Source: a virus
Lineage: Duplodnaviria; Caudoviricetes
Virus record (IMG/VR): IMGVR_UViG_3300046751_000386
Coordinates: 1-57,960 of that record
Strand: one strand, 5' to 3'
DNA length: 57,960 bases
Both the position numbers and the translations under genes were made by a program. Shown piece by piece: positions 12,360 to 57,960 of this stretch. Below the pieces are notes generated by a model. That model ran no database searches. It was not told the DNA's origin and saw only the letters and a list, made by a program, of their open reading frames with translations. How positions within the stretch are numbered: position 1 is the stretch's first letter; every line of letters starts with the position of its first letter.

Positions 12360-12436
12360 TTTAAATATTGTGTATTCTTTTGTTATCCCTGACAGGCGCA
12401 TGATGTGTCTGACACTAGCCACGACAGGAGTATAAC

Positions 12437-12985
12437 ATGGCTAATACAACTTTTTCGGGTCCGGTTCGTTCCGAAGGCGGATTTCAAGTCGTTTCCAAAA
12501 ACGCTACTACGGGCGCACTTACCACTGTTGCAAACACCGCTTCTACAGGAATTGTTACTAACAAGTATGTAAAGCATGTTGGTTTTGCCACGGGAGTTAC
12601 AGTAAACACTACTGCGGGTGATAGCCCTACGATTGGTGAATTTACACAACCAGCAAACACAATCATTACGGACATTAAGATCTTTTGTGATACGTCGCCT
12701 GTAATCGGCACGGGAGATATTGGTTATGAGGTTGGGACTTCTAGCTCTGGCGCACAGATTGTTGCGGCTCAGACTGATGAAATCTTAGACGGCGGTACAA
12801 CTGTTGTTGAGCATAACGTAACTGTAACCTCGTTGGTTTTGCAAACTCAGGACGGCACTACTGCTCCGGCCTCGGTTCAATACACTTCGGCAGAACGTAC
12901 AATCTTCTGTAACATCACCAACACGGTTGACGCCACTACCGCGGGTTCGTTTACGTTCATCATTGAGTATGTGCAGATTGCATAA
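12437..12985 (+). CDS. Virion structural protein (possible capsid fibre/decoration)
   Basis: MANTTFSGPVRS start, Thr-rich beta-type protein, RBS AGGAG. Confidence 0.65.
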   Translation: MANTTFSGPVRSEGGFQVVSKNATTGALTTVANTASTGIVTNKYVKHVGFATGVTVNTTAGDSPTIGEFTQPANTIITDIKIFCDTSPVIGTGDIGYEVGTSSSGAQIVAAQTDEILDGGTTVVEHNVTVTSLVLQTQDGTTAPASVQYTSAERTIFCNITNTVDATTAGSFTFIIEYVQIA

Positions 12986-39604: not shown

Positions 39605-41058
39605 CTTAACCACCCCTTAACTTCTTCACCCAGTACTTTGCCTGCTAGGCTTACCTTGTCGCGCAACGCGTTCAAAACCTTCTCGTCAATCGTATTAGGG
39701 GAAACTATGTCGATATAAGTTACCGCTTTAGTTTGACCAATCCGGTGCGCCCTGTCCTCACTCTGTAAGCGTATCTCCAGATCGTAGCTGTTGCTGTAGT
39801 AGATCACAGTGCTAGCCGCCGTCAGAGTAATGCCATAACCGCCCGTCTTGGGCTGACCCACAAAGAACCGCAGCGGGCTGTCGGGGTCTTGGAACTCCTC
39901 AACAATCTCCTGTCTGCGGTCCTGCGGCGTCTCACCGTAATAAGTTGCGACCGAATCGGGCCCGAAACGGTCGCGCAGGGCATGTGCTATCCGTTGGAGG
40001 TCGTTAGTGTACGTCGCCCAAATGATAGCCTTCCCCGAAAGCTCGTCTGTTATATCCATTAACTCTGGCAGACGGTTGTTCTTTAGTTCCTGTAAATCCC
40101 CCACGTCAGGCTGAAACGATCCGCAGCATATCTGTTGGAGCCGCATGATCTGTGTCAGAACACTGGTTGTCGTGGCAATGTTGTCATCATTGAGATGCGC
40201 CAAAGCCAATGACTTCATCTGATCGTACACCCTGCTTTGCTCCGTGGTCAACGGAACGCGGCGCTTTATGTACAGTTTCTCAGGTAAATCCAAACAATCC
40301 TCTTTTAACGTGCGGGTGCTGAACCCCAACAGACGCTCGTTTAGTTCGTCCAACCTACGGTATCCCGTTATCTCCTGAAAGCTGCGCGAACCCATTACAC
40401 GCTTCTGCGTAATCGCGTAGCGGCTCTGGAACGCGTAAAAGCTGGCAAAGCCCAAAGAACTCGGATCAAGGAACCTGCACTGACTGTAGAGGTCCAACGG
40501 GGACTTTGTAATCGGGGAGCCTGTCAGAATGCGCCTGTACTTAATGTACGGGTTTAACGCCATCAGGTTCTTGGTACGCTGGGCGTTGCGGTTTTTTATC
40601 GTGGTGCTTTCATCAACAACAGCCATGTTCTCGGGATTGGCTACCAGAAAACGTCCCGCGGCCCGCGTACCTCGGGGCGATGAGAACGCTTCGACGTTCA
40701 TTACAAAAAGTTTTAATCCGTCAAACGGGTCATCAATAAACGTATCCAGTTCCTCGGAGTAGCGTTTGGATGTGGCGGGCGTCCACCGCATAACTTTGCG
40801 CTTTATAGTGTCTGGCAAGTGTGCGGGTATTTCGCCCTGCACCCAGTTGTCGTAGACACCCTTGGGCGCTACAATTAGTGCCGCGTTTAGGTCACCTTCT
40901 ATATATAGTACACCTATATTATCTATGGCGACTTTAGATTTACCCGTTCCCATTTCCATAAAGTACGCGTGGTACGTTTTGTACCACGACTCTTCTAGTG
41001 CGTCACGCTGATGGTTGAAGGGCTGCGTCTTAAAGTCGTAATCTATCTGTTCCAACAT
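39601..41058 (-). CDS. SNF2-family (SF2) helicase
   Basis: MEMGTGKS, VVDEST, LTGSP, GGYGITLT and QSEDRAHRIGQ; RBS GGAGAAC before ATG 41058. Confidence 0.92.
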   Translation of the reverse strand: MLEQIDYDFKTQPFNHQRDALEESWYKTYHAYFMEMGTGKSKVAIDNIGVLYIEGDLNAALIVAPKGVYDNWVQGEIPAHLPDTIKRKVMRWTPATSKRYSEELDTFIDDPFDGLKLFVMNVEAFSSPRGTRAAGRFLVANPENMAVVDESTTIKNRNAQRTKNLMALNPYIKYRRILTGSPITKSPLDLYSQCRFLDPSSLGFASFYAFQSRYAITQKRVMGSRSFQEITGYRRLDELNERLLGFSTRTLKEDCLDLPEKLYIKRRVPLTTEQSRVYDQMKSLALAHLNDDNIATTTSVLTQIMRLQQICCGSFQPDVGDLQELKNNRLPELMDITDELSGKAIIWATYTNDLQRIAHALRDRFGPDSVATYYGETPQDRRQEIVEEFQDPDSPLRFFVGQPKTGGYGITLTAASTVIYYSNSYDLEIRLQSEDRAHRIGQTKAVTYIDIVSPNTIDEKVLNALRDKVSLAGKVLGEEVKGWLS

Positions 41059-41074
41059 TTGTTCTCCTACGGGG

Positions 41075-42564: not shown

Positions 42565-44100
42565 ATGTCAGTAGATAAGTTTTCCGCCATCTTTGATGGT
42601 TTGAAACAGGCTTACGGCACGTACAAAGTTGAAAAAACTCAGTCCAACGGTAAAAATACTGGCAAGGCTAGTATCATTAAGGAACCGCGGACCTCGAAAC
42701 TCTGGAAAGGTCATCTGTCCGGCAAAGGCACCGCTGTAGGCATCATCCCGATTAATGAGGATAATTGCTGCAAGTGGGGCTGCATTGACGTTGACCAGTA
42801 CCCGCTAGACCACAAAGTACTTATAGAAAAAATACGGGCCATGAAGCTGCCCTTGGTTGTCTGTCGATCAAAGTCCGGCGGCGCACACTGCTTTCTTTTT
42901 TGTAAGGAATGGATCGAAGCAAAGGAAATGCAGAAGGTCCTGACACACCTGTCCGCGGCCCTCGGATATGGCGGTAGTGAGATATTTCCAAAGCAAGTAA
43001 AGCTGCACTTGGACCGTGGAGATGTAGGTAACTTTCTAAACCTGCCTTACTACGACGCAGAGGACGGCCTGAGATATGGCATTCTGGATGACGGCACGTC
43101 AGCAACGCTTGAAGAGTTCTTCGGCTTGTACGAGGCGCATGTGCAAACGCCGGAGGAGATAGTCAAACTTCAGATGACTGACGCGCAGGTGAAAGGACCG
43201 CTTGCCGACGGACCGCCTTGCCTACAGCACCTTACCAAGGTTTTGATTAGCGAAGGCGGAAGAAACAACGGTCTGTACAACATAGGTATCTATCTACGCA
43301 AAGCGTTTCCCGATAGCTGGGAGACAGAGATAATGACGTACAACACTCAGTTTTTAGACCCGCCCTTGCCGCTGCCAGAAGTGAACGTTGTTGCAAAGCA
43401 AGTGGGCAAAAAGGATTACTCGTACAAATGTTCTGACGCGCCCATTAACGCACACTGCAACAAAGAACTGTGCCAGACCATGAAGTTTGGGATTGGTGCA
43501 GGGGCTCAGAACGCGGCTATTGGAAACTTGCGTAAGTATAACTCAACACCGCCCGTGTGGTTTATGGACGTAAACAGTGAACCCGTTGAATTAGATACTG
43601 ACGGCTTGATGAACCAGAGTATGTTTCAAAAAGCCTGTATGGAGCAAATCAACTTCATGCCCCGCAGCGTTGCTAGATCACAGTGGGAAGCGCGGATCAG
43701 CACTATGATGCGTGAAATGACCGAAAACCAAAGCGCCATAATAGAAGTGTCCGTTGACGCCTCAGTGGGTGGTCAGTTCTACGACTTCCTAGAAGAGTTC
43801 TGTAGCCACATGCAACAGGCCAAAGACAGGGAAGAGATACTACTTCGCCGTCCGTGGACGGATGAGGAAGGGCAGTATACTTACTTTAGGCTCAAGGACT
43901 TTGAAGGGTTTTTAAAGAAGAATAAGTTTTTTGAATATAAGTCCCACAAGATTGCCCAGCGTCTGCGCGAGGTGACCGGAGAAAGCTGCTTACTTAAAAT
44001 AAAAGGTCGAGTAGTGCGCCTATGGAAGGTGCCAGCATTTGAAAACGGTGATATAGAATTAAGTACACCACAGTTTCAAGCGCAGGAGAGTCCGTTTTGA
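42565..44100 (+). CDS. Archaeo-eukaryotic-type primase (prim-pol) with a PriCT-like domain
   Basis: CIDVD, RSKSGGAH, GNFLNLPY, PPCL, EGGRNN..YN motifs. Confidence 0.8.
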   Translation: MSVDKFSAIFDGLKQAYGTYKVEKTQSNGKNTGKASIIKEPRTSKLWKGHLSGKGTAVGIIPINEDNCCKWGCIDVDQYPLDHKVLIEKIRAMKLPLVVCRSKSGGAHCFLFCKEWIEAKEMQKVLTHLSAALGYGGSEIFPKQVKLHLDRGDVGNFLNLPYYDAEDGLRYGILDDGTSATLEEFFGLYEAHVQTPEEIVKLQMTDAQVKGPLADGPPCLQHLTKVLISEGGRNNGLYNIGIYLRKAFPDSWETEIMTYNTQFLDPPLPLPEVNVVAKQVGKKDYSYKCSDAPINAHCNKELCQTMKFGIGAGAQNAAIGNLRKYNSTPPVWFMDVNSEPVELDTDGLMNQSMFQKACMEQINFMPRSVARSQWEARISTMMREMTENQSAIIEVSVDASVGGQFYDFLEEFCSHMQQAKDREEILLRRPWTDEEGQYTYFRLKDFEGFLKKNKFFEYKSHKIAQRLREVTGESCLLKIKGRVVRLWKVPAFENGDIELSTPQFQAQESPF

Positions 44101-47166: not shown

Positions 47167-47527
47167 TCGAAGGGAGGCTTACGAAAGATTAGAAAACCTT
47201 TTAAAAAAGGCAATGGACCCTGCTTGCTCCCCCGCAGAAGCTCAAGCGTGTAAGGCAAAGGCGGATAAACTAGCCGCGGAATTAGGCATTAAACGACGTA
47301 AAAAGAAACGTAAAGAAAAGTTGTTTGTAAAAGGACTGTACACAAAAGCCCCGCAAGAAAGCTCTCCTGAATGGGTAATGTTTACTTTAAATATTAACCG
47401 CGCGGAACTAATTAAGTGGCTTTCAACAAGCGGTGACTCAGAGTGGATTAACGCTCAAGTGTGCAAAAGTCGCGGCACGGGGAACTTTTACGCAGAAATA
47501 AATCAATGGGAAGACGTAAATACATGA
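47159..47527 (+). CDS. Hypothetical protein (DUF2786-like N-terminus)
   Basis: LLKKA...SPAEAQAC..KA..L pattern. Confidence 0.6.
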   Translation: MINRREAYERLENLLKKAMDPACSPAEAQACKAKADKLAAELGIKRRKKKRKEKLFVKGLYTKAPQESSPEWVMFTLNINRAELIKWLSTSGDSEWINAQVCKSRGTGNFYAEINQWEDVNT

Positions 47528-47814
47528 AAAAAGAAGAAATTTTAAAAAAAAGTGCAGAGTTAGTGACAGGCAACCGTGCAAAAGACTATGGTGACGCGCT
47601 CGAAAACTTTGACCGTATCGCCACAGGGTGGAACGTAATTCTAAACGGGGCAATAGCCTCGCATGGATACCTAACCGCGCAGCACGTTGCGCTTATGATG
47701 GATTGGGTTAAAACAGCAAGACTACTAAACACCCTAGACCATGAAGACTCATGGATCGACAAGTGCGGATACAGCGCAATCGGTGGGTCTTTTTCGGGAG
47801 AAAAAAGTGAGTAA
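47524..47814 (+). CDS. Phage protein, DUF6378-like
   Basis: RAKDYGD..NF.RIA..W...VALMM..VK.AR...HEDSWIDKCGY. Confidence 0.75.
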   Translation: MKKEEILKKSAELVTGNRAKDYGDALENFDRIATGWNVILNGAIASHGYLTAQHVALMMDWVKTARLLNTLDHEDSWIDKCGYSAIGGSFSGEKSE

Positions 47815-49702
47815 TCTAACAGTAGGCAGCGCGTCCCTTTTATCCGAATGGGTGCCGCCACACGAACTGCCAGACCTAACACACGCCAAAACAATCGCTA
47901 TCGACGTGGAAACCAAAGACCCGAACCTTAAAAAGATGGGCCCCGGATGGGCTAGAGGTGACGGCGAAGTGGTGGGATACGCCGTGGCAACTACAGATTG
48001 GGCCGGATACATCCCCATCAGGCACCAAGGCGGCGGCAACCTAGACGAAAAACAAGTAAACAAGTGGCTGAAAAAGATATTCGACTGCCCCGCAGATAAA
48101 GTAATGCACAACGCTCAGTATGACCTCGGCTGGATCAAGCGCATGGGCTTTGATGTAAAGGGCCGTGTGATCGACACGATGGTTGTGGCGTCCCTGCTTG
48201 ATGAAAACCGTAGAAGCTTCAGTCTCAACAACCTCTGCTACGAACTGTTAGGCATAGCCAAGTCAGAAAAACTATTAAACGCCGCCGCGGTGGAGTTCGG
48301 GTTCGATGCAAAAGCAGAAATGTGGAAGATGCCCGCAATGTTTGTCGGGCCTTACGCACAGAACGATGCAGAGATTACGCTTAAACTGTGGGACTACCTG
48401 TCCGTACAAATCAAACAAGAAAACCTTGAGGGCGTTACAGAACTCGAACTAGACCTCCTGCCCTGCCTTGTAGACATGACATGGCGCGGTATTCGCGTCG
48501 ATATGGACAAAGCCGAAATAACGCGGAACGCAATCCTAAAGCGTGAGAAAGAAGTCCACAAAGAAATAAAACGTATCTCTGGCTGCGACATAGAAATCTG
48601 GGCCGCGGCGTCCATTGCCAAAGCCTTCGATAAAATGGGCATAGAATACTTTAAAACAGAAAAAGGCTCTCCGTCCTTCACCAAGAAGTTCCTGTCAGAA
48701 CATCCCGATAAGTTACCTAAACTGATTGTAGAAGCGCGAAACCTCAACAAAACGTCAGGCACGTTCATCAACAACATCCTGACCTTCTGTAACTCAGATG
48801 GACGTATCCATAGCCACATAAACCAAATTAGATCAGATGACGGCGGTACAGTATCAGGGCGGTTCTCTATGAATAACCCCAACCTACAACAAATCCCCGC
48901 CCGCGACCCAGAGATAGGACCAATGATCCGGTCCCTGTTTCTGCCAGAAGAAGGCGAACAATGGGCCGCTATAGATTACTCCCAACAAGAACCGCGCATC
49001 TTGGTTCACTACGCACACGTATTTGGTAAAAGCCAGAACAGAGTGCTAGGGGGCGTCACAGAGTTTATACAAAGCTACAAGGACGATCCGCGGACCGACT
49101 TCCATACGATGGTGGCAGAAATGGCGGGCATCCCGCGTAAACAAGCGAAGACCGTGAACCTCGGTATCATGTATGGCATGGGCGTGGGTAAGCTGGCGAT
49201 TGAACTTGATCTGCCCGAGGAACAGGCCAGAAGCCTGATTAACCAGTACCATGAGCGGGTGCCGTTTGTAAAAGAACTGATGAAGGGCGTACAAAGTCAC
49301 CTTAGTCAGAAAGGAAGCCGAGGCCATGTGAGGTCCCTACTGGGCCGCAAGTGTCGGTTTGAGTTGTGGGAACCAAAGCAGTTTGGAATGTTTAAAGCAC
49401 TGCCGTTCGAGCAAGCGGTGTTAGAACACGGCAAGCACACTCCGCTGGTCAGAGCGTACACCTACAAAGCACTCAACAGGCTGATCCAAGCGTCCGCCGC
49501 GGACATGACCAAGAAAGCTATGGTCGATCTGTACCGAGAGGGCTATCTGCCGATGCTGCAAATACACGATGAACTGGCTATGTCCGTAACGTCCAGAGAA
49601 GAGGCAGAAAAGGTTGCACTAATCATGCAAAATGCTGTACCATTGGAGTTGCCAAGCCTTTGTGACGTTGAGTTGGGTCCGTCATGGGGTGAAGCAGTAT
49701 AG
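47807..49702 (+). CDS. polA: DNA polymerase family A with 3'-5' exonuclease
   Basis: Exo motifs DVET and HNAQYD; motif A DYSQQEPR, motif B RKQAKTVNLGIMYG, motif C QIHDE; GTG start with RBS GGAGA. Confidence 0.95.
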   Translation: MSNLTVGSASLLSEWVPPHELPDLTHAKTIAIDVETKDPNLKKMGPGWARGDGEVVGYAVATTDWAGYIPIRHQGGGNLDEKQVNKWLKKIFDCPADKVMHNAQYDLGWIKRMGFDVKGRVIDTMVVASLLDENRRSFSLNNLCYELLGIAKSEKLLNAAAVEFGFDAKAEMWKMPAMFVGPYAQNDAEITLKLWDYLSVQIKQENLEGVTELELDLLPCLVDMTWRGIRVDMDKAEITRNAILKREKEVHKEIKRISGCDIEIWAAASIAKAFDKMGIEYFKTEKGSPSFTKKFLSEHPDKLPKLIVEARNLNKTSGTFINNILTFCNSDGRIHSHINQIRSDDGGTVSGRFSMNNPNLQQIPARDPEIGPMIRSLFLPEEGEQWAAIDYSQQEPRILVHYAHVFGKSQNRVLGGVTEFIQSYKDDPRTDFHTMVAEMAGIPRKQAKTVNLGIMYGMGVGKLAIELDLPEEQARSLINQYHERVPFVKELMKGVQSHLSQKGSRGHVRSLLGRKCRFELWEPKQFGMFKALPFEQAVLEHGKHTPLVRAYTYKALNRLIQASAADMTKKAMVDLYREGYLPMLQIHDELAMSVTSREEAEKVALIMQNAVPLELPSLCDVELGPSWGEAV

Positions 49703-49716
49703 TCTGCTCTTCAACT

Positions 49717-49750
49717 CCCCCGCTTTGGTTCAGCAAGGCGGGGGTTTTTT
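49717..49750 (+). terminator. Rho-independent terminator after polA
   Basis: CCCCCGCTTTG-gttcag-CAAGGCGGGGG plus T6. Confidence 0.85.
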
Positions 49751-49808
49751 GTTGTGTATCAAGTGTTTATCCTATATAGTCCCAGAAACTCTCACAAAGG
49801 CGCATAAG

Positions 49809-49985
49809 ATGGATACTACAAAATGGAAATCAGTCCTCGTTCCGGTCGAAGTTTACCGCGAATTGAAGATTTTATCGGCTATCGAAGGCCGCACAATCAG
49901 CGGACAGCTACGCTTTATGTTTGACCAATACAGCAAACTGAAGTCCGTTCGAAATAAGCTCAAGCAACACTACGAAGAAGCTTGA
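49809..49985 (+). CDS. Ribbon-helix-helix (Arc/CopG-like) DNA-binding protein
   Basis: KWKSVLVP-VEVYRELKILSAIEGRTISGQLRFMF fits the beta-strand/helix/turn/helix pattern. Confidence 0.7.
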   Translation: MDTTKWKSVLVPVEVYRELKILSAIEGRTISGQLRFMFDQYSKLKSVRNKLKQHYEEA

Positions 49986-50010
49986 CCACTCCCATATTAT
50001 CGCGTATGTA
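49982..50010 (+). promoter_or_regulatory. Promoter for the candidate sRNA
   Basis: TTGACC-N17-TATGTA; spacer nearly identical to that of the promoter at 54779. Confidence 0.6.
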
Positions 50011-50015
50011 ATATG

Positions 50016-50095
50016 TATCTCCTCATGAGATATTAATGTTTGTTCTCCAATAAACATTGAACCCTCACCGAAATACCCGCGGTGAGGGTTTTTTC
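50016..50095 (+). ncRNA. Candidate anti-Shine-Dalgarno small RNA with three hairpins
   Basis: ORF-less; bounded by a promoter and an intrinsic terminator; 10-bp stem with CUCC loop complementary to GGAGAAC RBSs. Confidence 0.6.
50060..50095 (+). terminator. Rho-independent terminator
   Basis: AACCCTCACCG-N9-CGGTGAGGGTT followed by TTTT. Confidence 0.88.
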
Positions 50096-50107
50096 TTGTA
50101 TTTGTAC

Positions 50108-50136
50108 TTGACTATCTCGTATAGTTGGTTTATCTT
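50108..50136 (+). promoter_or_regulatory. Sigma70-like promoter
   Basis: TTGACT-N17-TATCTT. Confidence 0.7.
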
Positions 50137-50164
50137 AGCTTTACTCAACCAAAGGAGAACAAAC

Positions 50165-51004
50165 ATGCTTGAGTCACGCTTTCTTGATAAAGCAGCCGCA
50201 ACAGAACTGCTTAGTAATAACTGGTATAAAAACCGTAAAATCCACAGAGGCATTAAAGATCAACACGTTAAAGACCTCGCGGCAAAGATCACACAAGGCC
50301 GCTGGGTTGTAGATGCAATGGAAACGCCTATTCTAATTGATACAGACGGTATTTTATATAACGGTCAAAATAGATGTATGGCTGTAATTCTCGCTGACCA
50401 AGGTGTAGTGGTGCAGTGCCGCATAGAGTCGCCGGAAGAGTGCCAAAGACTGTACGCGTCTCTGGACCTTGGCAAAGCCCGATCAATCGCAGACATTACA
50501 GGATTAAACCAAAGCAACATAGTGCAGCCCATACTCTACCTCATGCGCTGCGCGGGCCTTGATGGACGGCTTAAAGATGAAGCCGTCGTATCGCGGATCG
50601 CGGATACTTACATGGGAGATATCCTGCGCCACTTCGATCAGAACACCCGTTGGGTAAAAAACAATCGGTGCTTTAATTCTGTTCAATTTAAGGCCGCAAT
50701 GGCGTACTGTGTTCATAGGCGGGTATTGCCCGATTATGAAGCTATCTCGGTGCTTGAAATGTTGCAGAACAACAAAGACTACCACTGGCCTTCCATGTAT
50801 TTAAACTACCGCGAACAGATCGTGTTTCCAAACGGTAAGCTAAATACTAGCGGTAAGAACGTAGCAAACGATAAGTTCTGCCGAGGCGTTTATCTGATCG
50901 AACGCCGCATGAAACATCAAAGCAAAATTCAAATATCCAGCGGATTTCTGGATGACCTTGCTTCAAACGTTCGCCGCGTGATTAGCTTGGCTGCTGCCGA
51001 ATGA
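50165..51004 (+). CDS. Protein with a ParB/Srx-like N-terminal domain
   Basis: VKDLA..I..G.W...PILID..G.LYNGQNR..A resembles the ParB-like DG(Q)HR motif; RBS AAGGAGAAC. Confidence 0.55.
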   Translation: MLESRFLDKAAATELLSNNWYKNRKIHRGIKDQHVKDLAAKITQGRWVVDAMETPILIDTDGILYNGQNRCMAVILADQGVVVQCRIESPEECQRLYASLDLGKARSIADITGLNQSNIVQPILYLMRCAGLDGRLKDEAVVSRIADTYMGDILRHFDQNTRWVKNNRCFNSVQFKAAMAYCVHRRVLPDYEAISVLEMLQNNKDYHWPSMYLNYREQIVFPNGKLNTSGKNVANDKFCRGVYLIERRMKHQSKIQISSGFLDDLASNVRRVISLAAAE

Positions 51005-51219
51005 ATTATAAGATAGAAAAAAACATCCCCCTTCCCGCGTCACAGCGGAAAGGGAAGTTCGCTATCTTAGAGGACTTGGAAGTTGGCGACAGCTTTCATG
51101 TTGCAGATGTAACCGCGCCAGCGGGCATCTATTCAAAAGCAGAGAGCCTCGGGATTAAAGTAACCGTGAGAAGCATCCTACACCCTAGCGGCGGCTTCAG
51201 AGTTTGGAGAATCGAATGA
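51001..51219 (+). CDS. Small phage protein
   Basis: KIEKNIPLP...LEVGDSF...GFRVWRI. Confidence 0.75.
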   Translation: MNYKIEKNIPLPASQRKGKFAILEDLEVGDSFHVADVTAPAGIYSKAESLGIKVTVRSILHPSGGFRVWRIE

Positions 51220-51515
51220 GCGACAAAGCTTGGCATATCAGTTACCTGTCCGCTATCGTCGGACCGTGCGCCGCAACAACCGATGACGGTTGTATGGCGT
51301 GGGAAGACACAGAAAAAAGTGACTTTGTTATGCGCCTACTTGACAGGGATAATGACGCCAAAAACCTCCTACTCGTTATTCAACCAGAAATGAATGAGTT
51401 GGCGATTTACACCCTGACCGGATACTGCGTGGCAAACGATCTGCCGTACATGATTAAAGATTGGGATACCCTGTCCGCAGAAGGGCAAAAAGAAGCTCAG
51501 AAAACGAGGCACTGA
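51216..51515 (+). CDS. Hypothetical protein
   Basis: ATGA coupling; RBS TTGGAGAA. Confidence 0.65.
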   Translation: MSDKAWHISYLSAIVGPCAATTDDGCMAWEDTEKSDFVMRLLDRDNDAKNLLLVIQPEMNELAIYTLTGYCVANDLPYMIKDWDTLSAEGQKEAQKTRH

Positions 51516-51517
51516 AC

Positions 51518-51721
51518 ATGATCCACCGCGACGAGTACGAACGCGTCTGCGAAGAAAACAGAAAGTTGCGGGACTTGGTTAAAGCCAAGTCCCCAATGGC
51601 TATGATGCAAATGCTTAAAAGGTTTCTGGGAGGGAACTATGACCGCACTGGAACAGTGGAAGACACTAGCGAAAATAGAAAACGCCAAGATGCTGGAACC
51701 CTACGAGGGCCGACCCCCTAA
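51518..51721 (+). CDS. Hypothetical protein
   Basis: Short coiled-coil ORF; overlaps the next gene. Confidence 0.5.
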   Translation: MIHRDEYERVCEENRKLRDLVKAKSPMAMMQMLKRFLGGNYDRTGTVEDTSENRKRQDAGTLRGPTP

Positions 51722-51932
51722 TTACGGTATTGTCAAAAATAAGATTAAAGGCGGCGGACCGCGGCTCTCGGAAATTAACCGCTCACTCGCCGCACAAAAA
51801 CTTCTGGAAATGTCCCAAAAAGGTTATACTCTGGAAGAAGCCGCCGTTGAAACAAACTCCCCAATAGAGAAAGTTCTAGGCCGCGCCAGACGCTATCAAA
51901 TCACGTTTAAAGGGCAAGAGGAGCTTTTATGA
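51639..51932 (+). CDS. Hypothetical protein, possible C-terminal HTH
   Basis: RBS GGAGG; GYTLEEAA...IEKV. Confidence 0.6.
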   Translation: MTALEQWKTLAKIENAKMLEPYEGRPPNYGIVKNKIKGGGPRLSEINRSLAAQKLLEMSQKGYTLEEAAVETNSPIEKVLGRARRYQITFKGQEELL

Positions 51933-52192
51933 GTAATCACCTATCAGAAGTGGCAGAGGGCATCATAGAGGCTTGCCCAACGCAGCTTAACCCAGATGAA
52001 ATGTCTACCCTGATTGCGTACATGATCTGGTCGTACGGTATGCAAAGCGATTGGGACGATATGCTTCCCAAAATCGTGCGCTGCATAAATCTGGATGACG
52101 GTCACGCCCGTATCGTCAGAGTGGCTAACAGAGACGCTAATAAGTTTTTGGATAAAGTAAGAGAGGATGTTAGCAATGCCCGACGCAGTTAA
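51929..52192 (+). CDS. Hypothetical protein
   Basis: RBS GAGGAG; ATGA coupling. Confidence 0.65.
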   Translation: MSNHLSEVAEGIIEACPTQLNPDEMSTLIAYMIWSYGMQSDWDDMLPKIVRCINLDDGHARIVRVANRDANKFLDKVREDVSNARRS

Positions 52193-52340
52193 ACTGTTCT
52201 CCGAAATAGACCAGCAGTTCCTAGAACTGGAACAACAGTTCGAAATAATCAAAAAACAACGGGAAGAAATAGAACTATGCAAGAAGAAGACATTAAACGC
52301 ATCCAAAGAGACCTCAACCCCGCACAACAAGCCGAATTAA
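52176..52340 (+). CDS. Small coiled-coil hypothetical protein (54 aa, not in the ORF track)
   Basis: MPDAVKLFSEIDQQFLELEQQFEIIKKQREE...; RBS GAGAGG; fills an otherwise empty gap. Confidence 0.5.
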   Translation: MPDAVKLFSEIDQQFLELEQQFEIIKKQREEIELCKKKTLNASKETSTPHNKPN

Positions 52341-52486
52341 AATTCCTTCGACAAGAAGTCGATAGATGCCAAGATGCGCGGTTTGCTAAAGAACCACTAC
52401 CCAACGCCAACCAAAACTACTGGACCGCCGCAGAAGAACTGGACAGATACGTCAGGAGCCTTCGTAATGATGGATACTGGATTTAA
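52277..52486 (+). CDS. Hypothetical protein
   Basis: 69 aa helical ORF ending LRNDGYWI. Confidence 0.6.
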   Translation: MQEEDIKRIQRDLNPAQQAELKFLRQEVDRCQDARFAKEPLPNANQNYWTAAEELDRYVRSLRNDGYWI

Positions 52487-52664
52487 AACCATAATCGAAG
52501 TGATGAAACAAGGATCGTGGCTCACGGACCTCGAAGTGGCAGAGCGGGCCAAAATGAAACTAGATGCCGCGCTCTACTACCTTAGACGATTAAGGCGCTT
52601 GGGGCTGGTGATAAGCGAATGGGTTCACGGACAACGGGTCTGGGGTGTTCTTAACTGCACTTGA
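52467..52664 (+). CDS. Small winged-helix-like DNA-binding protein
   Basis: LTDLEVAERAKM....YYLRRLRRLGLV..W pattern; RBS AGGAG. Confidence 0.6.
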   Translation: MMDTGFKTIIEVMKQGSWLTDLEVAERAKMKLDAALYYLRRLRRLGLVISEWVHGQRVWGVLNCT

Positions 52665-52689
52665 CTTTCTTCTATACTTGGGGTATTCT
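52661..52689 (+). promoter_or_regulatory. Sigma70-like promoter
   Basis: TTGACT-N17-TATTCT. Confidence 0.7.
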
Positions 52690-52720
52690 GTAAAAGTAAA
52701 TCTTACAAAGGTAGGTTCAA

Positions 52721-52984
52721 ATGCCTAATCACTCGGCAACAAAAATGATAGACGATGCTTCGGCACAGATTGAGCTTGTTGAAATCATTCCAGAACAAGG
52801 GGATATAAGCAGTTATATTCGGATCGTTGCGCTTGCATCCTTCTATTGGGAAGAGGATCAAGATTGGTCTGAGTTTGTTCAACAGGTAACCTCGGTTGCA
52901 GACAGTATGTTTGCAGAGTTCAATAACGACAATCCGCGGATCGTTACACAATACATTCAATTTAAAACAGGGGGAGTACTGTGA
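52721..52984 (+). CDS. Acidic hypothetical protein
   Basis: 87 aa ORF downstream of the promoter. Confidence 0.6.
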   Translation: MPNHSATKMIDDASAQIELVEIIPEQGDISSYIRIVALASFYWEEDQDWSEFVQQVTSVADSMFAEFNNDNPRIVTQYIQFKTGGVL

Positions 52985-53008
52985 AAGTAACCCCAATGGA
53001 GAACCATT

Positions 53009-53344
53009 ATGAAAGCCCGAATAAACATCACACAACGGATGCTCAACAAAAGCATTATAGACGCCAATAAAAGCGTCGTAGCGTTCGTTAGAAATTGCTA
53101 CCCAACACTGGGATACGACTTCATAGAAAATGGGGGCAAAAACACCCTTTTAGCGTACTATGACGATGGTCACGAATATACAACGACCAGCATACGATTG
53201 TACCGCCGACCGCGGGGCGATAAACTTATGTCCGTTTGGGGGCTGACAAGACGCGCCAAAGCAGGAGACACAATGACTTTCGAGCATGACAAGGAAAGCA
53301 ACAGAATAATCGTCCGGCTCGAACTGGGAGAAGATATAGAATAG
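53009..53344 (+). CDS. Hypothetical protein (possible B3/EcoRII-N-like beta-barrel)
   Basis: RBS TGGAGAAC; ...LYRRPRGD....GL...AKAGD.MTF. Confidence 0.6.
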   Translation: MKARINITQRMLNKSIIDANKSVVAFVRNCYPTLGYDFIENGGKNTLLAYYDDGHEYTTTSIRLYRRPRGDKLMSVWGLTRRAKAGDTMTFEHDKESNRIIVRLELGEDIE

Positions 53345-53787
53345 GGCGGGTTTAGGGGTTTTAACCCGTCCTAGCGCAGGGAGCGGTCGCTTAACACTCT
53401 CACGCGGTAGGCCATTTTGACATAGTAGTGGCAGGACCGCGGATCAGGCTCTCGTCTTAATTTAGGCGGGAGCCTGTGTCGTTAGTAACGTGTATACTAT
53501 ACCCCTCCTGAGAATTGAAAAAAAAAAAAACGAAAATAAATAGCCGTTACCGGTGTTATAAAAGTTACCACTCTGTAATCAAACAAAAATAAGGCAAAAA
53601 ACGGTAACATTTTCGGTAACTCCATACTAAAGATAGGTGTTACTTTGGCTGTTTTTTGACCCAAACGGTTAAGCAGCCTTCTGCGTTAAGCCAAATCTCC
53701 ACAAAAAAAAGTAAAAAAAGTTTCTCTGGCGGGGTATACTATATGTTGCTAAAGGGTATTGTATAGTTATTTGCAGTGGAGAGAACC

Positions 53788-54447
53788 GTGCCTAGAAAAA
53801 CAAATGCTGATCTTGCAAAACTCCCCAAGCCTTTGAGGATTAAAGCGAGGCCCATCCCTAGAAAGCATACCGGACTAGCCGTGGATAAAGAGGCCAACCG
53901 TTCTGATCCCCGAGGCGCGAAGTATAAGACAGCGGATAGCCCTTTGACGCGTAAGCAAGAGCTTTTTGTAAAAGAGCTTGTAAGCAACGACGGTATGATA
54001 ACTTACAAGGAAGCCGCCATTCGAGCGGGCTACCCTGAGAGTTCAGCCCACACCCGTGCATATGAGTTAACCAACCCTCACAAATGCCCGCATGTTGTGG
54101 CAGCTATCAGGCGGTATCGAAACGAATTGGATGAACGTTTTGCCATCAACTACAGCAGACACGTTCGAGACTTGCAGAAAATCCGTGATGTGGCCCTCGA
54201 AAACGGGGCGTACAGTGCCGCGGTACAAGCCGAGTATAGACGGGGACAGGCGCAGGGTGATATATACGTTAGCAAGGCGGAGATCAGACACGGCAGTATC
54301 GACAACATGGACAAGGATGAGGTGATGAAAGCGTTGAAGGAACTAAAGGAATCCAATGGCTCAGACATTATCGACATTACCCCAACCGAAGATTCCGACG
54401 GAAGCGGCGTTTTATCAACAGTTGAGGACAGCCGCGAAAAAGGTTAG
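53788..54447 (+). CDS. terS: Terminase small subunit
   Basis: LTRKQELFVKE...EAAIRAGY..SAHTRAYEL...PHVVAAI HTH pattern typical of TerS. Confidence 0.75.
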   Translation: MPRKTNADLAKLPKPLRIKARPIPRKHTGLAVDKEANRSDPRGAKYKTADSPLTRKQELFVKELVSNDGMITYKEAAIRAGYPESSAHTRAYELTNPHKCPHVVAAIRRYRNELDERFAINYSRHVRDLQKIRDVALENGAYSAAVQAEYRRGQAQGDIYVSKAEIRHGSIDNMDKDEVMKALKELKESNGSDIIDITPTEDSDGSGVLSTVEDSREKG

Positions 54448-54796
54448 GCCCCAGTTAAGCCTGACTAGAATAGAAAACTCTGTCGGTCAGGGCATACCCG
54501 ACCTTATGATCTGCGATGAACGCGGGCTATTTCATTTTGTAGAATTAAAGTTTTGCAAGGCCAATGCGGTACGGTTAAGCCCGCACCAAGTTTCTTGGCT
54601 AACGAGGCACCGACACAGTAGCAGTTGGATATTGGTTAAGCAGCATCAGAACTGGGGGAAAAAACCTGTCGTTCTTTTGTATCGTGCGGATCAGGCAATA
54701 GCGGTCAAAACAGACGGGCTAAAGACCGATCCGGTGTATGAAGGCACAAATCCTTTTGATTGGCCTGTTCTTTTCGACTTGATTTCTCCCATATAA
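54356..54796 (+). CDS. VRR-NUC / Holliday junction resolvase-like PD-(D/E)xK nuclease
   Basis: E..FY...RIEN..GQGIPDL...FVELK...LSPHQVSW. Confidence 0.8.
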   Translation: MAQTLSTLPQPKIPTEAAFYQQLRTAAKKVRPQLSLTRIENSVGQGIPDLMICDERGLFHFVELKFCKANAVRLSPHQVSWLTRHRHSSSWILVKQHQNWGKKPVVLLYRADQAIAVKTDGLKTDPVYEGTNPFDWPVLFDLISPI

Positions 54797-54807
54797 TCGC
54801 ATATACT
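54779..54807 (+). promoter_or_regulatory. Sigma70-like early promoter
   Basis: TTGATT-N17-TATACT, with TCCCATATAA/TCGCATATAC repeats. Confidence 0.75.
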
Positions 54808-54836
54808 CTAAGGGTTAGCTAAATGGAGAACATGCT

Positions 54837-55193
54837 ATGAGTTTAAATTATGATTTATGCGGTGTAAAAGCCGACTATAAAGACGACGCCGTCTGGCCTA
54901 TCACCAGTGCTTTAATTTGGGGCACCATGTCGGTTGGCTTAAATGCGATTACGGAAAAGAATTGGGAGGAATTTTACGTTCGTTGCCACGCCGTTGAAAC
55001 GATCAACGGGGCTTGGCTTCGTGATAAGGATTTAAAAGGCCGACCGATCACGGCAGAGGATGTAAGAAGCCACGTAGGATTGCACACCAATGCGGACACT
55101 CGAACTAAGGCCGAGTTCCAGAAAGACATTTACAGACGTTTTTTGGATCAGGCTAACCGCAACATAACACTGTCACGGCAGGAACTCGAATGA
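54837..55193 (+). CDS. Early hypothetical protein
   Basis: RBS TGGAGAAC; 118 aa. Confidence 0.75.
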   Translation: MSLNYDLCGVKADYKDDAVWPITSALIWGTMSVGLNAITEKNWEEFYVRCHAVETINGAWLRDKDLKGRPITAEDVRSHVGLHTNADTRTKAEFQKDIYRRFLDQANRNITLSRQELE

Positions 55194-55372
55194 ATACTTA
55201 TAAGATCACCTGTGAGATTCATGTGCTGGCAGAAAATGCCCACGATGTTGAGGCAACGCTGCACGAAGAAGCTTACGCATGGCTCAAGAACAACGAATTT
55301 ATGTGTGCCATAGAGAGCAACGCGAAGACAATCACACGAATGAATATCACGGAAGAAAGGGAGAAAGCCTAA
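55190..55372 (+). CDS. Early hypothetical protein
   Basis: ATGA coupling; 60 aa. Confidence 0.6.
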   Translation: MNTYKITCEIHVLAENAHDVEATLHEEAYAWLKNNEFMCAIESNAKTITRMNITEEREKA

Positions 55373-55375
55373 CCA

Positions 55376-55480
55376 ATGTTTATTTTTGAACTAATAGGTC
55401 GATTGCTTTATGGCAGCGATTACGAGGAATTGAGCAAAAGAGCGAACCGCAAAAAACCAACGCGAAAACGCCGACGATAA
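55376..55480 (+). CDS. Very small protein with a basic tail (34 aa, not in the ORF track)
   Basis: MFIFELIGRLLYGSDYEELSKRANRKKPTRKRRR; RBS GGGAG; ends just before a terminator. Confidence 0.55.
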   Translation: MFIFELIGRLLYGSDYEELSKRANRKKPTRKRRR

Positions 55481-55493
55481 AACTTTAGAAACT

Positions 55494-55523
55494 GCCCGCT
55501 TTACAGGCGGGCTTTTTTCTTTT
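55494..55523 (+). terminator. Rho-independent terminator
   Basis: GCCCGC...GCGGGC plus TTTTTTCTTTT. Confidence 0.75.
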
Positions 55524-55558
55524 ATAGATATGGGACATTGCATATATTGGAGAACGCT

Positions 55559-55789
55559 ATGGCTAACGTAATTTATAAGAAATATTCCTTTTTGGGACAG
55601 CCTAGATACTGGAACCGACGCACTAGAATGTGGACATTATGGCTTTCTAAAAGTTGCCATTACCCGACGCACCACGGCGCGTTGCGCGTTTTGCATAGCC
55701 GAAGGTTTTCGGAAAATATTTCAACGAATAAAGACGTATCGACAGGCATAAGCCTATCGCCGGAATATGGGGTAAAAACGCTATGCTAA
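55559..55789 (+). CDS. Early basic/aromatic hypothetical protein
   Basis: RBS TATTGGAGAAC before ATG 55559. Confidence 0.6.
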   Translation: MANVIYKKYSFLGQPRYWNRRTRMWTLWLSKSCHYPTHHGALRVLHSRRFSENISTNKDVSTGISLSPEYGVKTLC

Positions 55790-56493
55790 AAACTGTCGAA
55801 TATAGCCGCGCAAAAAAGACGCGGGGAATTGCAGTCACATATAGAGCGGGCGATGGTAGCAATTACGGAACTTGCCCAGTTAGTTGTGAACTTAACCCGA
55901 GCGGTTGCGGCGCGTCAAAAATAGATGTTGATTATCTTGACGCTGTTTTAGATGCTAAACCTGTCAAAGGTGTATCGTTCACCTATTCGCATTTCTCTCC
56001 CCTTCACTGGAAACGAAAACTTGCGGCAAATAAAACGGTCATAAACTACAGCGCAAAAACCGCCGAAATCGCGGCAAAGTTTATGCGGTTTAAGGTGCCT
56101 TGTGTTGTGACAGTTGGGGAAAAATTCTGGCAGGGGAAAAAGAAACAATCTGTTGATGGTGCCTTGATTGTACGTTGTCCGGCGGAAACAATCGCGGGGT
56201 TTAGTTGTGCCGATTGCGGCAATGGTGATCCCCTATGCGCAAGGCTCGAAAGAACTTTTGCAGTTGGCTTTACCGCCCATGGTGCTAGTAAAAAGAAAGC
56301 CGCTAATCCAGATGAGGCGGGCGGTTGCTATGCGTCTGGCGGTAATGTCGCGTTGCACTGGACGGCTACAGCCGCGCAGGATCAGGACGAAACCGACGGG
56401 GATAAATTGCGTCGCTTTGTTTCTGGCTTGCCGCCCCGTTCAATTATCCGGCATCATATTGCAGGCGATATAGGCGAGGAAACGCACGATTAG
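55783..56493 (+). CDS. Cys-rich phage protein (GP88/DUF7227-like, putatively metal- or Fe-S-binding)
   Basis: TCPVSC, FTYSH, CPA...CADC...LC, GFTAHG, GCYA and RHHIAGD motifs. Confidence 0.6.
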   Translation: MLKTVEYSRAKKTRGIAVTYRAGDGSNYGTCPVSCELNPSGCGASKIDVDYLDAVLDAKPVKGVSFTYSHFSPLHWKRKLAANKTVINYSAKTAEIAAKFMRFKVPCVVTVGEKFWQGKKKQSVDGALIVRCPAETIAGFSCADCGNGDPLCARLERTFAVGFTAHGASKKKAANPDEAGGCYASGGNVALHWTATAAQDQDETDGDKLRRFVSGLPPRSIIRHHIAGDIGEETHD

Positions 56494-56575
56494 AAATTTC
56501 CGCTTGATTATATATGCGAGGTTCTATATGAAGGGGGCGGGGCAATCCTGCCCCTTTAACTTTGGAGAACGTAAA

Positions 56576-57703
56576 ATGTCACATTCAATCGAAAACTCAA
56601 ACAACAGTTTAACCCAGCTAATGCAACAGGTCCAAGACCAAGCCGCCCGCAAGGCTGATTTTTTGACCCCTACAAATGATCTGCAAAAGATCACCAATTC
56701 AGAAACAAACGAACCAATATTAGTTATTGAAGCAAAAGGCGGCGAACCTACCCGCCATTTAAAAATAAACAACGTAGCTTTCCAACAGCTAGCCGCGCAT
56801 TGCGACATTGAGGCCCGCACGGCCCGCCGCCTTCAAACACATTACCCTTTTGAGTTCGACAATCTGATTAACGCTCACTTTGATCAAGAGCCTAAGCGGA
56901 AAATGCTTCGTACTTTTCTCGACACCGACGAAACGAACGGCACCGCCCGAGCGTTGCTTTCCGACAGGTTTAAGTGTTTTGATAATGATAATATGATCCA
57001 AACCATTTTGCCGCCGTTGATGGAAAACCCCGCGCAACTTCAGGTCGTGAACGCAAAAATTAGCGACAGCAAATTGTATATGCGGTTTAAAAGCCTTGTT
57101 CATACTGGGGCGGGTGCAAACGTGTCAGATGTAATGGCGAACGGTTGCGGCTTTTCTAACTCGGAGACGGGGCAGGGATCGGTGTCAGCTTACCAGCTTT
57201 TTTGGACCTTAGCATGCCTTAATGGCATGCAAACCGAGAACAAAACTCGGAGCAGCCATATCACCAGCGCGAGGGATAGTGACGATTGGGGCTTGTTATC
57301 GGGAGAGGCGCAGGAAGCCGATAATAGAGCCTTGAATTTAAAACTTCGTGATCTGGTGGAAGCATACAGCAGCCGCGAGATGTTTGACCAAGTGCTGGAC
57401 AAGATGAAAGCAGCAGCCGCCGACACAATCGAAGGCGAATATTCGGTTTCTGACACGGTTAACAATCTGGGAACCGTTATGCGTTTGACCAAAAAAGAAA
57501 CGTCAAATGTTCTTGACGGCCTTATGTCAACTATAGGGCAAGCGGGCTATGAGAACGACCGCCCATTGTCGCGGGCAACCTTTATCAACGCCGTGACAGC
57601 AGCGGGCAACAAATGTGATATTGACCAGACGGATGACTATCAACGCCTTGGGGGTCGTCTTTTGAATATGAACGCTCGAGATTGGAACCGCATAGCGGCT
57701 TAA
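56576..57703 (+). CDS. DUF932-like phage protein
   Basis: RALLSDRF..FDN, SNSETG.GS and LACLNGM motifs; RBS TTGGAGAAC before ATG 56576. Confidence 0.7.
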   Translation: MSHSIENSNNSLTQLMQQVQDQAARKADFLTPTNDLQKITNSETNEPILVIEAKGGEPTRHLKINNVAFQQLAAHCDIEARTARRLQTHYPFEFDNLINAHFDQEPKRKMLRTFLDTDETNGTARALLSDRFKCFDNDNMIQTILPPLMENPAQLQVVNAKISDSKLYMRFKSLVHTGAGANVSDVMANGCGFSNSETGQGSVSAYQLFWTLACLNGMQTENKTRSSHITSARDSDDWGLLSGEAQEADNRALNLKLRDLVEAYSSREMFDQVLDKMKAAAADTIEGEYSVSDTVNNLGTVMRLTKKETSNVLDGLMSTIGQAGYENDRPLSRATFINAVTAAGNKCDIDQTDDYQRLGGRLLNMNARDWNRIAA

Positions 57704-57712
57704 ATTTTTTTA

Positions 57713-57741
57713 TTGCTTTGCACTTTACAATGGCGCATATT
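57713..57741 (+). promoter_or_regulatory. Sigma70-like early promoter
   Basis: TTGCTT-N17-CATATT followed by the hairpin GGGGCAGGG-GAAA-CCTTGCCCC. Confidence 0.65.
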
Positions 57742-57788
57742 GGGGCAGGGGAAACCTTGCCCCTTAACTTTGTTTGGAGAACGAAAAA

Positions 57789-57960
57789 ATGGAACTAGCT
57801 AAAACAGACTACACCAATGAGACCGAGTTGAGAGCGGCGCGTGAAATGCTCGAACGCCGTGAAGTGGAAATAGCCCGCTTGCGTGAAGAGATGGAAGCAC
57901 TTCGAACCGTTAACCAAGAAAATGCTTTGATGCTGGACGATATACGCTTGCCCCTTTTTA
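57789..57960 (+). CDS. 5' part of the early gene that continues to position 372
   Basis: MELAKTDYTNETELRAAREMLERRE...; RBS TTGGAGAAC. Confidence 0.8.
   Translation, partial: MELAKTDYTNETELRAAREMLERREVEIARLREEMEALRTVNQENALMLDDIRLPLF

Follow-up and report, generated by a model that had tools for sequence, protein, structure and literature searches.

To our knowledge, phage-encoded small RNAs (sRNAs) with known targets are few, and most of them target host mRNAs or only one gene of the phage. Several bacterial sRNAs, among them AbcR, RsaE and the Betaproteobacteria toxic sRNA (RF02278), use a CUCC-type loop motif to reach many mRNA targets at the Shine-Dalgarno (SD) sequence, and host genes also give rise to 3' untranslated region (UTR)-type sRNAs with an internal promoter, such as DapZ and MicL. 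In phage T4, early mRNAs are silenced through their SD regions by proteins, the repressor RegA and the endoribonuclease RegB. In the heteroimmunity of phages P1 and P7, complementary pairs differ between the related phages. The c4 (immI) element of these two phages is a short antisense RNA, encoded on the same strand as its target and upstream of it, whose loops pair with the target's ribosome-binding site (RBS) region and block translation, as described in PMC12197685. In Pseudomonas phages, PMC10914365 catalogues short terminated leader RNAs, to which no targets are assigned. Here we describe an element between 49982 and 50096 of IMGVR_UViG_3300046751_000386, a complete IMG/VR virus record of 57,960 bp with a GC content of 47.7%; the record was analyzed as a whole, and we refer to it as the window. 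We put the probability that this element is a stand-alone sRNA gene with a functional pairing RNA as its product at about 0.65. On the best reading, it would represent a conserved family of phage RNAs of about 55-100 nt, each reading a lineage-specific extended RBS on early leaders.

The window RNA resembles c4 in being short, in lying upstream of the next gene on the same strand, and in complementing the SD and AUG of that gene over 13 nt. It differs from c4 in carrying its own promoter and terminator, whereas c4 is processed from the transcript of its own target, and in facing about nine dispersed leaders, whereas c4 controls a single operon (icd-ant) in temperate phages. The window RNA also lacks a match to the Rfam C4 family, and the downstream gene, which matches only phrog_5931 and no Pfam family, does not provide the icd-ant context. 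No lysogeny gene was noticed in the window, in which only 10 proteins were annotated. With AbcR, RsaE and RF02278 the element shares two hairpins followed by a terminator and a CUCC-type motif in a loop, but those RNAs are chromosomal and have generic SD seeds, whereas the window seed extends to both sides of GGAG and matches a phage-specific RBS. No Rfam 15 family matched the element at its gathering threshold. The best scores in a permissive scan of 49900-50200 were 24.5 bits for rnk_leader and 20.7 bits for RF02278, each against a gathering threshold of 50 bits, so that the element is not a member of the latter, and no C4 hit was obtained at E <= 10. As with DapZ and MicL, the promoter is in the end of an upstream coding sequence, whose mRNA uses the same terminator. 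The task, post-transcriptional silencing of early genes, would be that of T4 RegA and RegB, with the difference that the specificity element here is an RNA. The 5'UTR-derived RNAs of Pseudomonas phages differ from the window RNA in being without assigned targets. Literature searches on phage sRNAs and anti-SD pairing and on phage HTVC023P, which did not extend to supplements, returned no description of the element; Table S1 of PMC12197685 contains 38 phage sRNAs without described function and could bear on its novelty. Judged from its sequence, the element would best be described as a member of a new, conserved family of phage sRNAs, akin in kind to anti-SD sRNAs and to the c4 antisense RNA.

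The promoter, the two hairpins and the terminator were found where the earlier note had placed them, as confirmed by both sequence and fold. The promoter (49982-50010, + strand, as are the features below unless stated otherwise) has a -35 box TTGACC at 49982-49987, which overlaps the TGA stop codon of an upstream 58-aa open reading frame (ORF), a 17-nt spacer containing the operator-like TCCCATAttATCGCG, and a -10 box TATGTA at 50005-50010. Hairpin 1 (50015-50033; 7 bp including one G-U, loop CUCAU) is the variable part of the RNA. Hairpin 2 (50034-50059; 11 bp) contains the anti-RBS segment, 50036-50052, with a CUCC loop at 50045-50048, and is followed by an intrinsic terminator (50060-50096) with an 11-bp GC-rich stem (50060-50090), a 9-nt loop and U6. 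The RNA from 50010 to 50100 has a minimum free energy (MFE) of -32.5 kcal/mol (z = -6.0), and no sequence among 200 shuffles was as stable; hairpin 2 alone accounts for -6.4 kcal/mol. The proposal that these approximately 80 nt hold no credible ORF survived an ORF check, which gave, on the + strand, nothing but an extension of the downstream gene to an in-frame TTG and, on the - strand of the region, a 49-aa ORF antisense to the 58-aa gene. Two coding candidates were rejected: a - strand gene using the inverted RBS would start with ATT and stop four codons later, with no - strand ORF conserved in relatives, and a + strand small peptide would depend on a 7-codon ATG frame that has no SD and whose ATG is lost in one close relative (L010). 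By its predicted features, the element would be an independent transcription unit, with a promoter, no ORF, an intrinsic terminator and conservation.

Complementarity to hairpin 2 is concentrated at the RBSs of early genes. We scored perfect complementarity to hairpin 2 in RBS windows from -22 to +3 around 75 starts, taken from our own crude gene caller and curated by hand for three missed genes and three dubious ORFs. In a control with 2,000 shuffles of the hairpin 2 flanks, CTCC was kept fixed in place. Nine of the 75 RBS windows contain at least 8 complementary nt, compared with a mean of 1.93 for the shuffles, 28 of which reach 9; at a threshold of at least 9 nt, there are 7 windows against a shuffle mean of 0.65 (3/2000 shuffles). 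When the genes are divided into an early region (50100-57960 plus 1-2000), a replication block and a structural block, the matches of at least 8 nt fall in 8/21, 1/12 (the SNF2 helicase) and 0/42 genes, respectively (Fisher p = 9e-5). The predicted RNA-target duplexes range from -14 to -20.6 kcal/mol, well below the energy of hairpin 2 alone. The window seed, GUUCUCCAAUA, complements the RBS motif TATTGGAGAAC, and the targets share the extended motif (T)TGGAGAAC. The canonical CCUCC core at the 3' end of 16S rRNA can pair with the GGAG core only; the flanks TATT and AAC cannot pair with it. The window contains 18 copies of GGAGAAC (14 on the + strand and 4 on the - strand); nine copies sit 3-9 nt 5' of a start codon, and the six + strand copies outside the early region lie within genes and are not RBSs. 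We rejected GGAGAAC as the general RBS of the phage, as none of the 42 structural-region genes has it. This absence also means that the test named in the earlier note, an equal frequency of GGAGAAC at late genes, does not refute the proposal.

The strongest target is the RBS and AUG of the adjacent 279-aa gene (50154-50166), with 13 complementary nt and the -20.6 kcal/mol duplex. Eleven nucleotides match at the RBS of a 73-aa gene (1237-1247), which has a GC hairpin at 1210-1232 upstream, and at that of a 76-aa gene (55545-55555), which has a terminator at 55494-55512 upstream, and 10 nt match at the RBS of the SNF2-family helicase gene (41058-41067, - strand). Matches of 9 nt are found at the RBSs of a 375-aa gene (56562-56570; hairpin 56539-56554 upstream), a 138-aa gene spanning the terminal repeat (57774-57782; hairpin 57742-57763 upstream) and a 118-aa gene (54824-54832; a paralogous operator-type promoter, 54779-54807, upstream), and one of 8 nt at the RBS of a 111-aa gene (52997-53004). 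Weaker candidates are the RBS of a 99-aa gene (51204-51211; 8 nt, TTGGAGAA) and that of a 103-aa gene (493-499; 7 nt), which has a promoter-like site at 429-458 and a GC hairpin upstream. All of the complementarities listed in the earlier note were reproduced; the one at 54824 covers 9 nt and not 8, and the 8-nt site at 51204 is an addition. Because promoter-like sites or terminator-like GC hairpins directly precede these RBSs, the targets are the leaders of separate early transcription units. In four early genes, a GC-rich hairpin with a U-rich tract (468-485, 1210-1232, 56539-56554 and 57742-57763) is present between promoter and RBS. These four hairpins look like terminators or attenuators within 5' leaders, and they are related in sequence to one another and not to the terminator of the small RNA. 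Other than the SNF2 helicase, the target proteins gave no Pfam family. As a separate observation, a near-identical relative (G005) has extra small early genes at 42599 and 42779 that are absent from the window and have AATGGAGAACAGAC RBSs and a duplicated leader, so that early genes gained more recently take on this RBS code as well.

The seed and the RBSs change together among related phages. Genes in 15 whole contigs (G001-G015) were called with the same script, and each RNA was compared with the RBS windows of each genome. Different lineages have different seeds, and each seed complements RBSs in its own genome: ACCUCAUAAAAA and TTTTTATGAGGTG in G001 (13, 12, 11 and 8 nt), CUCCGUAGUUGAA and TTCAACTACGGAG in G008 (13, 11, 10, 10 and 8 nt), GUUCUCCGUAG and TACGGAGAACAT in G003 (12, 10, 9 and 8 nt), CUCCGUGUAGU and ACACGGAGA or ACTACACGG in G012 (four matches of 9 nt and two of 8 nt), CACCUCCAUU and AATGGAGGTG in G010 (10 and 8 nt), and CUCCGUAGUA and TACTACGGAG in G011 and G004 (10 nt). 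In G002 and G007, the loop GCUCCGUAGG matches the RBS CTACGGAG over 7-9 nt in 6 and 9 genes, respectively. The flanks co-change even within the CUCCGUAG group, in which the RNA has UUG and the RBS CAA in G008, and the RNA has UAa and the RBS aTA in G011. For 14 genomes, G005 and G015 being excluded because they nearly duplicate the window, the top three matches within the own genome added up to 122, compared with 102.6 +/- 3.8 for permuted assignments, and 0 of 20,000 permutations reached 122. When the share of genes matching over 8 nt or more was scored instead, 3 of 20,000 permutations were as good, and for representatives of six seed classes the true assignment of RNAs to genomes was the single best of 720. 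The earlier note had suggested covariation of loop and RBS class in related genomes as a check, and own pairs outperformed all 20,000 permuted assignments; together with the 9 of 75 RBS windows, this upholds its idea of one anti-SD RNA directed at a dedicated RBS class of about nine early and replication genes. In G001, G003 and G008, the best targets (11-13 nt) lie 3-6 kb downstream of the RNA gene and the adjacent gene has only 6-8 nt, which favors action in trans. Structure prediction places the seed in a mostly unpaired position in most lineages, namely a 7-nt loop, the 5' end, or a linker before the terminator.

The element is also conserved among close relatives. The 279-aa downstream protein is encoded by 16 viral contigs at 86-97% identity, and 14 of them extend over the RNA region. 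The promoter (TTGACC through TATGTAATA) and a 22-nt core of hairpin 2 are invariant throughout these 14, although the gene beside this promoter has many synonymous differences in the four more distant of them; this conservation exceeds the neutral expectation. The same core occurs exactly in 22 viral contigs. The stem of the terminator is kept through paired (compensatory) changes in L012-L016, and in L026 the terminator has been replaced by a different one. Hairpin 1 is unconserved, with a register shift in L010 and a truncation in L013 and L015. As a side observation, an insert of 45-100 nt separates the terminator from the following promoter in L002-L016; it includes a hairpin of its own (CACGCTAACG...CGTTAGCGTG), differs in length among relatives and is absent from the window.

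Among more distant relatives (55-75% identity in PolA), the RNA body diverges strongly between lineages and the slot, consisting of promoter, short RNA and terminator, is the same. At least 599 viral contigs encode a relative of PolA; the best 80 of them, one at 96% identity and the others at 63-75%, were analyzed further. In 72 of the 80, tblastn located a gene for a ribbon-helix-helix (RHH) protein, the family to which the 58-aa protein of the window is tentatively assigned, after PolA. A strict finder, which accepted only perfect stems with loops of up to 9 nt, located a terminator 20-420 nt past the RHH stop codon in 31 of these 72. The operator-type promoter motif occurs within 130 nt 5' of the terminator in 29 of the 31, and CTCC or CCTC within 45 nt 5' of it in 30 of the 31. 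No cultured carrier of the module was found among the two phages examined, DSL-LC04 and 023Pt_psg01, in which the RHH protein gave no significant tblastn match (E 0.5-6). DSL-LC04 has an RHH-looking 93-aa gene after PolA with no RNA unit behind it. A CUCCUC approximately 12 nt 5' of a strong terminator was observed in the PolA 3' region of this phage, ahead of the 93-aa gene (21837-21952 of L115); it may be a distant counterpart of the RNA element in a different position.

Several observations weigh against a functional pairing RNA. The -10 box is weak, with 3 of 6 consensus positions, and a generic promoter scan did not list the promoter. The generic scan missed both the RNA promoter and the terminator because its rules demand T at position 6 of the -10 box and a loop of at most 8 nt. 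The promoter is probably real and repressor-controlled despite its -10 box, because a paralogue in the window and distant homologues share its layout. The window seed is half buried, with a 4-nt loop and a mean probability of being unpaired of 0.42. One base of the adjacent RBS has been lost in L013-L016, which leaves a match of 10 nt instead of 13, and the RNA has not changed to compensate; in G005, the orthologue of the 1241 site is GGAGGAT and not GGAGAAC. In G006, G009 and G014 the top own match is only 7 nt, and the RNA of G013 is without any anti-SD motif; these four contigs are short (8.5-15.5 kb). Because related phages share seed classes, the independent covariation events number about 6, not 14. 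In the census, 39 of the 72 RHH-bearing relatives had no terminator within 420 nt by the strict finder, and 2 more had one at the RHH stop; since the finder missed evident elements in L095, L093 and L070, 31 of 72 is a lower bound. Finally, gene calls and start sites come from a simple in-house caller.

The mechanism that we propose begins at the operator-type sigma-70 promoter at the end of the RHH gene, which would drive a two-hairpin RNA of about 80 nt ending at a terminator common to the small RNA and the RHH mRNA. The anti-RBS segment would pair with the SD of leading early cistrons and of the SNF2 helicase gene. Such pairing would block 30S binding, and a coordinated brake on early-gene translation is the most likely outcome; it would probably destabilize the target mRNAs as well. 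Expression as a discrete species, a repressive and not an activating effect, the timing and any chaperone are inferences. Distant units would be reached in trans, and the adjacent gene, through transcripts that pass the terminator, in cis as well. Consistent with the latter, the MFE and centroid folds of a read-through RNA (50017-50195, z = -6.5) pair 50036-50048 with 50154-50166 in 13 bp around the terminator. A promoter-like site of the downstream gene (50108-50136, TTGACT-17-TATCTT), which is kept in relatives, separates the anti-SD segment from the SD, so that only transcripts from this promoter would be expected to be translatable at the adjacent gene.

The read-through fold also speaks for a rival interpretation, in which the element acts purely in cis by sequestering the adjacent SD and AUG in RNA read through from the RHH or PolA promoters, and all other matches are by-products of a shared RBS. 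The longest match in both the window and G015 is with the adjacent gene, and the position of the 50108-50136 site between the two segments fits this logic, which is also that of the T4 lysozyme gene, whose early read-through RNA is translationally silent. The earlier note had mentioned such cis pairing as an alternative; it appears real for the adjacent gene, where it is as plausible as pairing in trans, but cannot explain targets kilobases away in the phage and its relatives. In G001, G003 and G008 the adjacent gene has the poor match and the distant genes the good ones. The RNA has its own conserved promoter, and the seed part that pairs with TATT 5' of GGAG, although it has no bearing on the adjacent gene, does not vary and complements other leaders. 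The base lost from the adjacent RBS in L013-L016 was, moreover, left uncompensated. We consider action in cis alone unlikely.

Alternatively, the element could be an attenuated leader or antitermination site that feeds into the early operon, or the 3'UTR of the RHH gene, with no role in pairing and with complementarity left over from an inverted intergenic cassette. On the - strand, the locus indeed reads as a standard intergenic cassette, with a GC hairpin, a T-rich stretch and then GGAGAAC. In relatives of the G003 type, a gene follows directly after the terminator with no new promoter. Premature termination reportedly yields short RNAs derived from 5'UTRs in other phages (PMC10914365). However, a relic would not remain invariant beside drifting coding DNA, nor would it match a different RBS class in each lineage, and the likeness to the cassettes is confined to the 8-13-nt seed, the hairpins being unrelated. 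An attenuator role, for its part, is compatible with pairing in trans. We regard this alternative as doubtful. It is highly improbable that (T)TGGAGAAC is instead a DNA site bound in either orientation by a phage protein such as the RHH protein, because, even though a DNA-binding gene always adjoins and motif copies that change with the specificity of the protein would covary here too, nine copies stand in one orientation at a fixed 3-9 nt from the start codon with promoter distance varying, the motif includes the SD itself, exactly one inverted copy exists and is in every lineage the one between promoter and terminator, and a separate operator-like TCCCATA..ATCGC is already present within the promoters.

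Returning to the pairing RNA, its promoter belongs to a class that may link it to the neighboring RHH gene. The 58-aa RHH gene (49809-49985, + strand), directly upstream of the RNA, follows the end of the PolA gene at 49702 and a terminator at 49717-49744; its product matches Pfam RHH_5 weakly (E = 3.2e-5, 24 bits, against a cutoff of 26 bits). The promoter paralogue at 54779-54807, TTGATT-17-TATACT, has a nearly identical spacer, tCTCCCATATaATCGCa. In the element promoters of distant relatives, a -35 box TTGAC or TTGCT is immediately followed by T(C/G)CCATA and then by the -10 box. The spacer T(C/G)CCATA..ATCGC is conserved, and in some relatives an ATGCGAT...ATCGCAT palindrome surrounds the -35 box. 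This conserved spacer, always near an RHH gene, is likely an operator for the RHH protein. The RHH neighbor, together with the operator-like spacer that the RNA promoter and the promoter at 54779 have in common, suggests that the RNA may be wired into a repressor circuit. In nine relatives (L045, L052, L053, L057, L060, L063, L067, L073 and L083), the stretch from the RHH homology to the RNA promoter includes a Cys-rich zinc-ribbon-like sequence (CPKC...C..C), either fused to the RHH gene or following it.

The window carries almost all of its genes on the + strand. It ends in a direct terminal repeat of 127 bp (1-127 = 57834-57960), and because the 138-aa ORF starting at 57789 runs over the terminal junction to end at 372, we take it to be a circularly closed assembly. 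The 279-aa downstream protein belongs to phrog_5931, a family without assigned function; a provisional 'ParB-like' label was dropped, as Pfam gives no match. By PolA, the nearest cultured phage is DSL-LC04 (56% identity), with Gammaproteobacteria as its listed host, followed by 023Pt_psg01 and the pelagiphages HTVC023P and HTVC027P (48-55% identity). The alphaproteobacterial framing of the earlier note found no support; by PolA, the nearest cultured relatives infect a gammaproteobacterium and SAR11. A blastn search with 49600-50400 against GenBank phages gave no match. The sole Rfam family in the window at gathering threshold is the Mu-gpT-DE motif at 12387-12439 (+ strand; 70.8 bits, E = 1.7e-14), immediately 5' of an ORF starting at 12437. 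Four RNA libraries from one metatranscriptome study contain 17-30% of the sampled words of the window, and contigs with 90-99% identity cover much of 47500-56500, including one that corresponds to 49751-50082 and ends inside the terminator stem; such contigs cannot reveal transcription, strand or ends and were weighed neither for nor against the RNA. At the end of the 118-aa gene (55172-55348), contigs from three metatranscriptome libraries replace 175 nt by 11 other letters, which is a natural indel variant among related phages.

If the pairing RNA is real, it would provide a family-wide case of one RNA reading a private extended RBS code on a phage's own early operons, and it would be an RNA counterpart of T4 RegA and RegB. 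The covariation supplies ready-made compensatory pairs of seed and RBS, and repeated extended RBS motifs in phage early regions may be a computational route to cognate regulators. We speculate, as a tentative and rather unlikely extension, that seed and RBS form a translational "identity code," with each lineage marking its early leaders by a private extended RBS and carrying the RNA that reads it, and that the RNA of a resident phage silences early genes of any co-infecting or superinfecting phage with the same code. In that case, the six or more seed classes found in one conserved slot would be the trace of an arms race among related phages, and heteroimmunity of the P1/P7 c4 type would extend to an entire early regulon of abundant phages in the sea. 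The element is carried by uncultured marine phages from many metagenomes that are also present in marine metatranscriptome libraries. Given this recurrence across marine metagenomes, the mechanism could be ecologically widespread.

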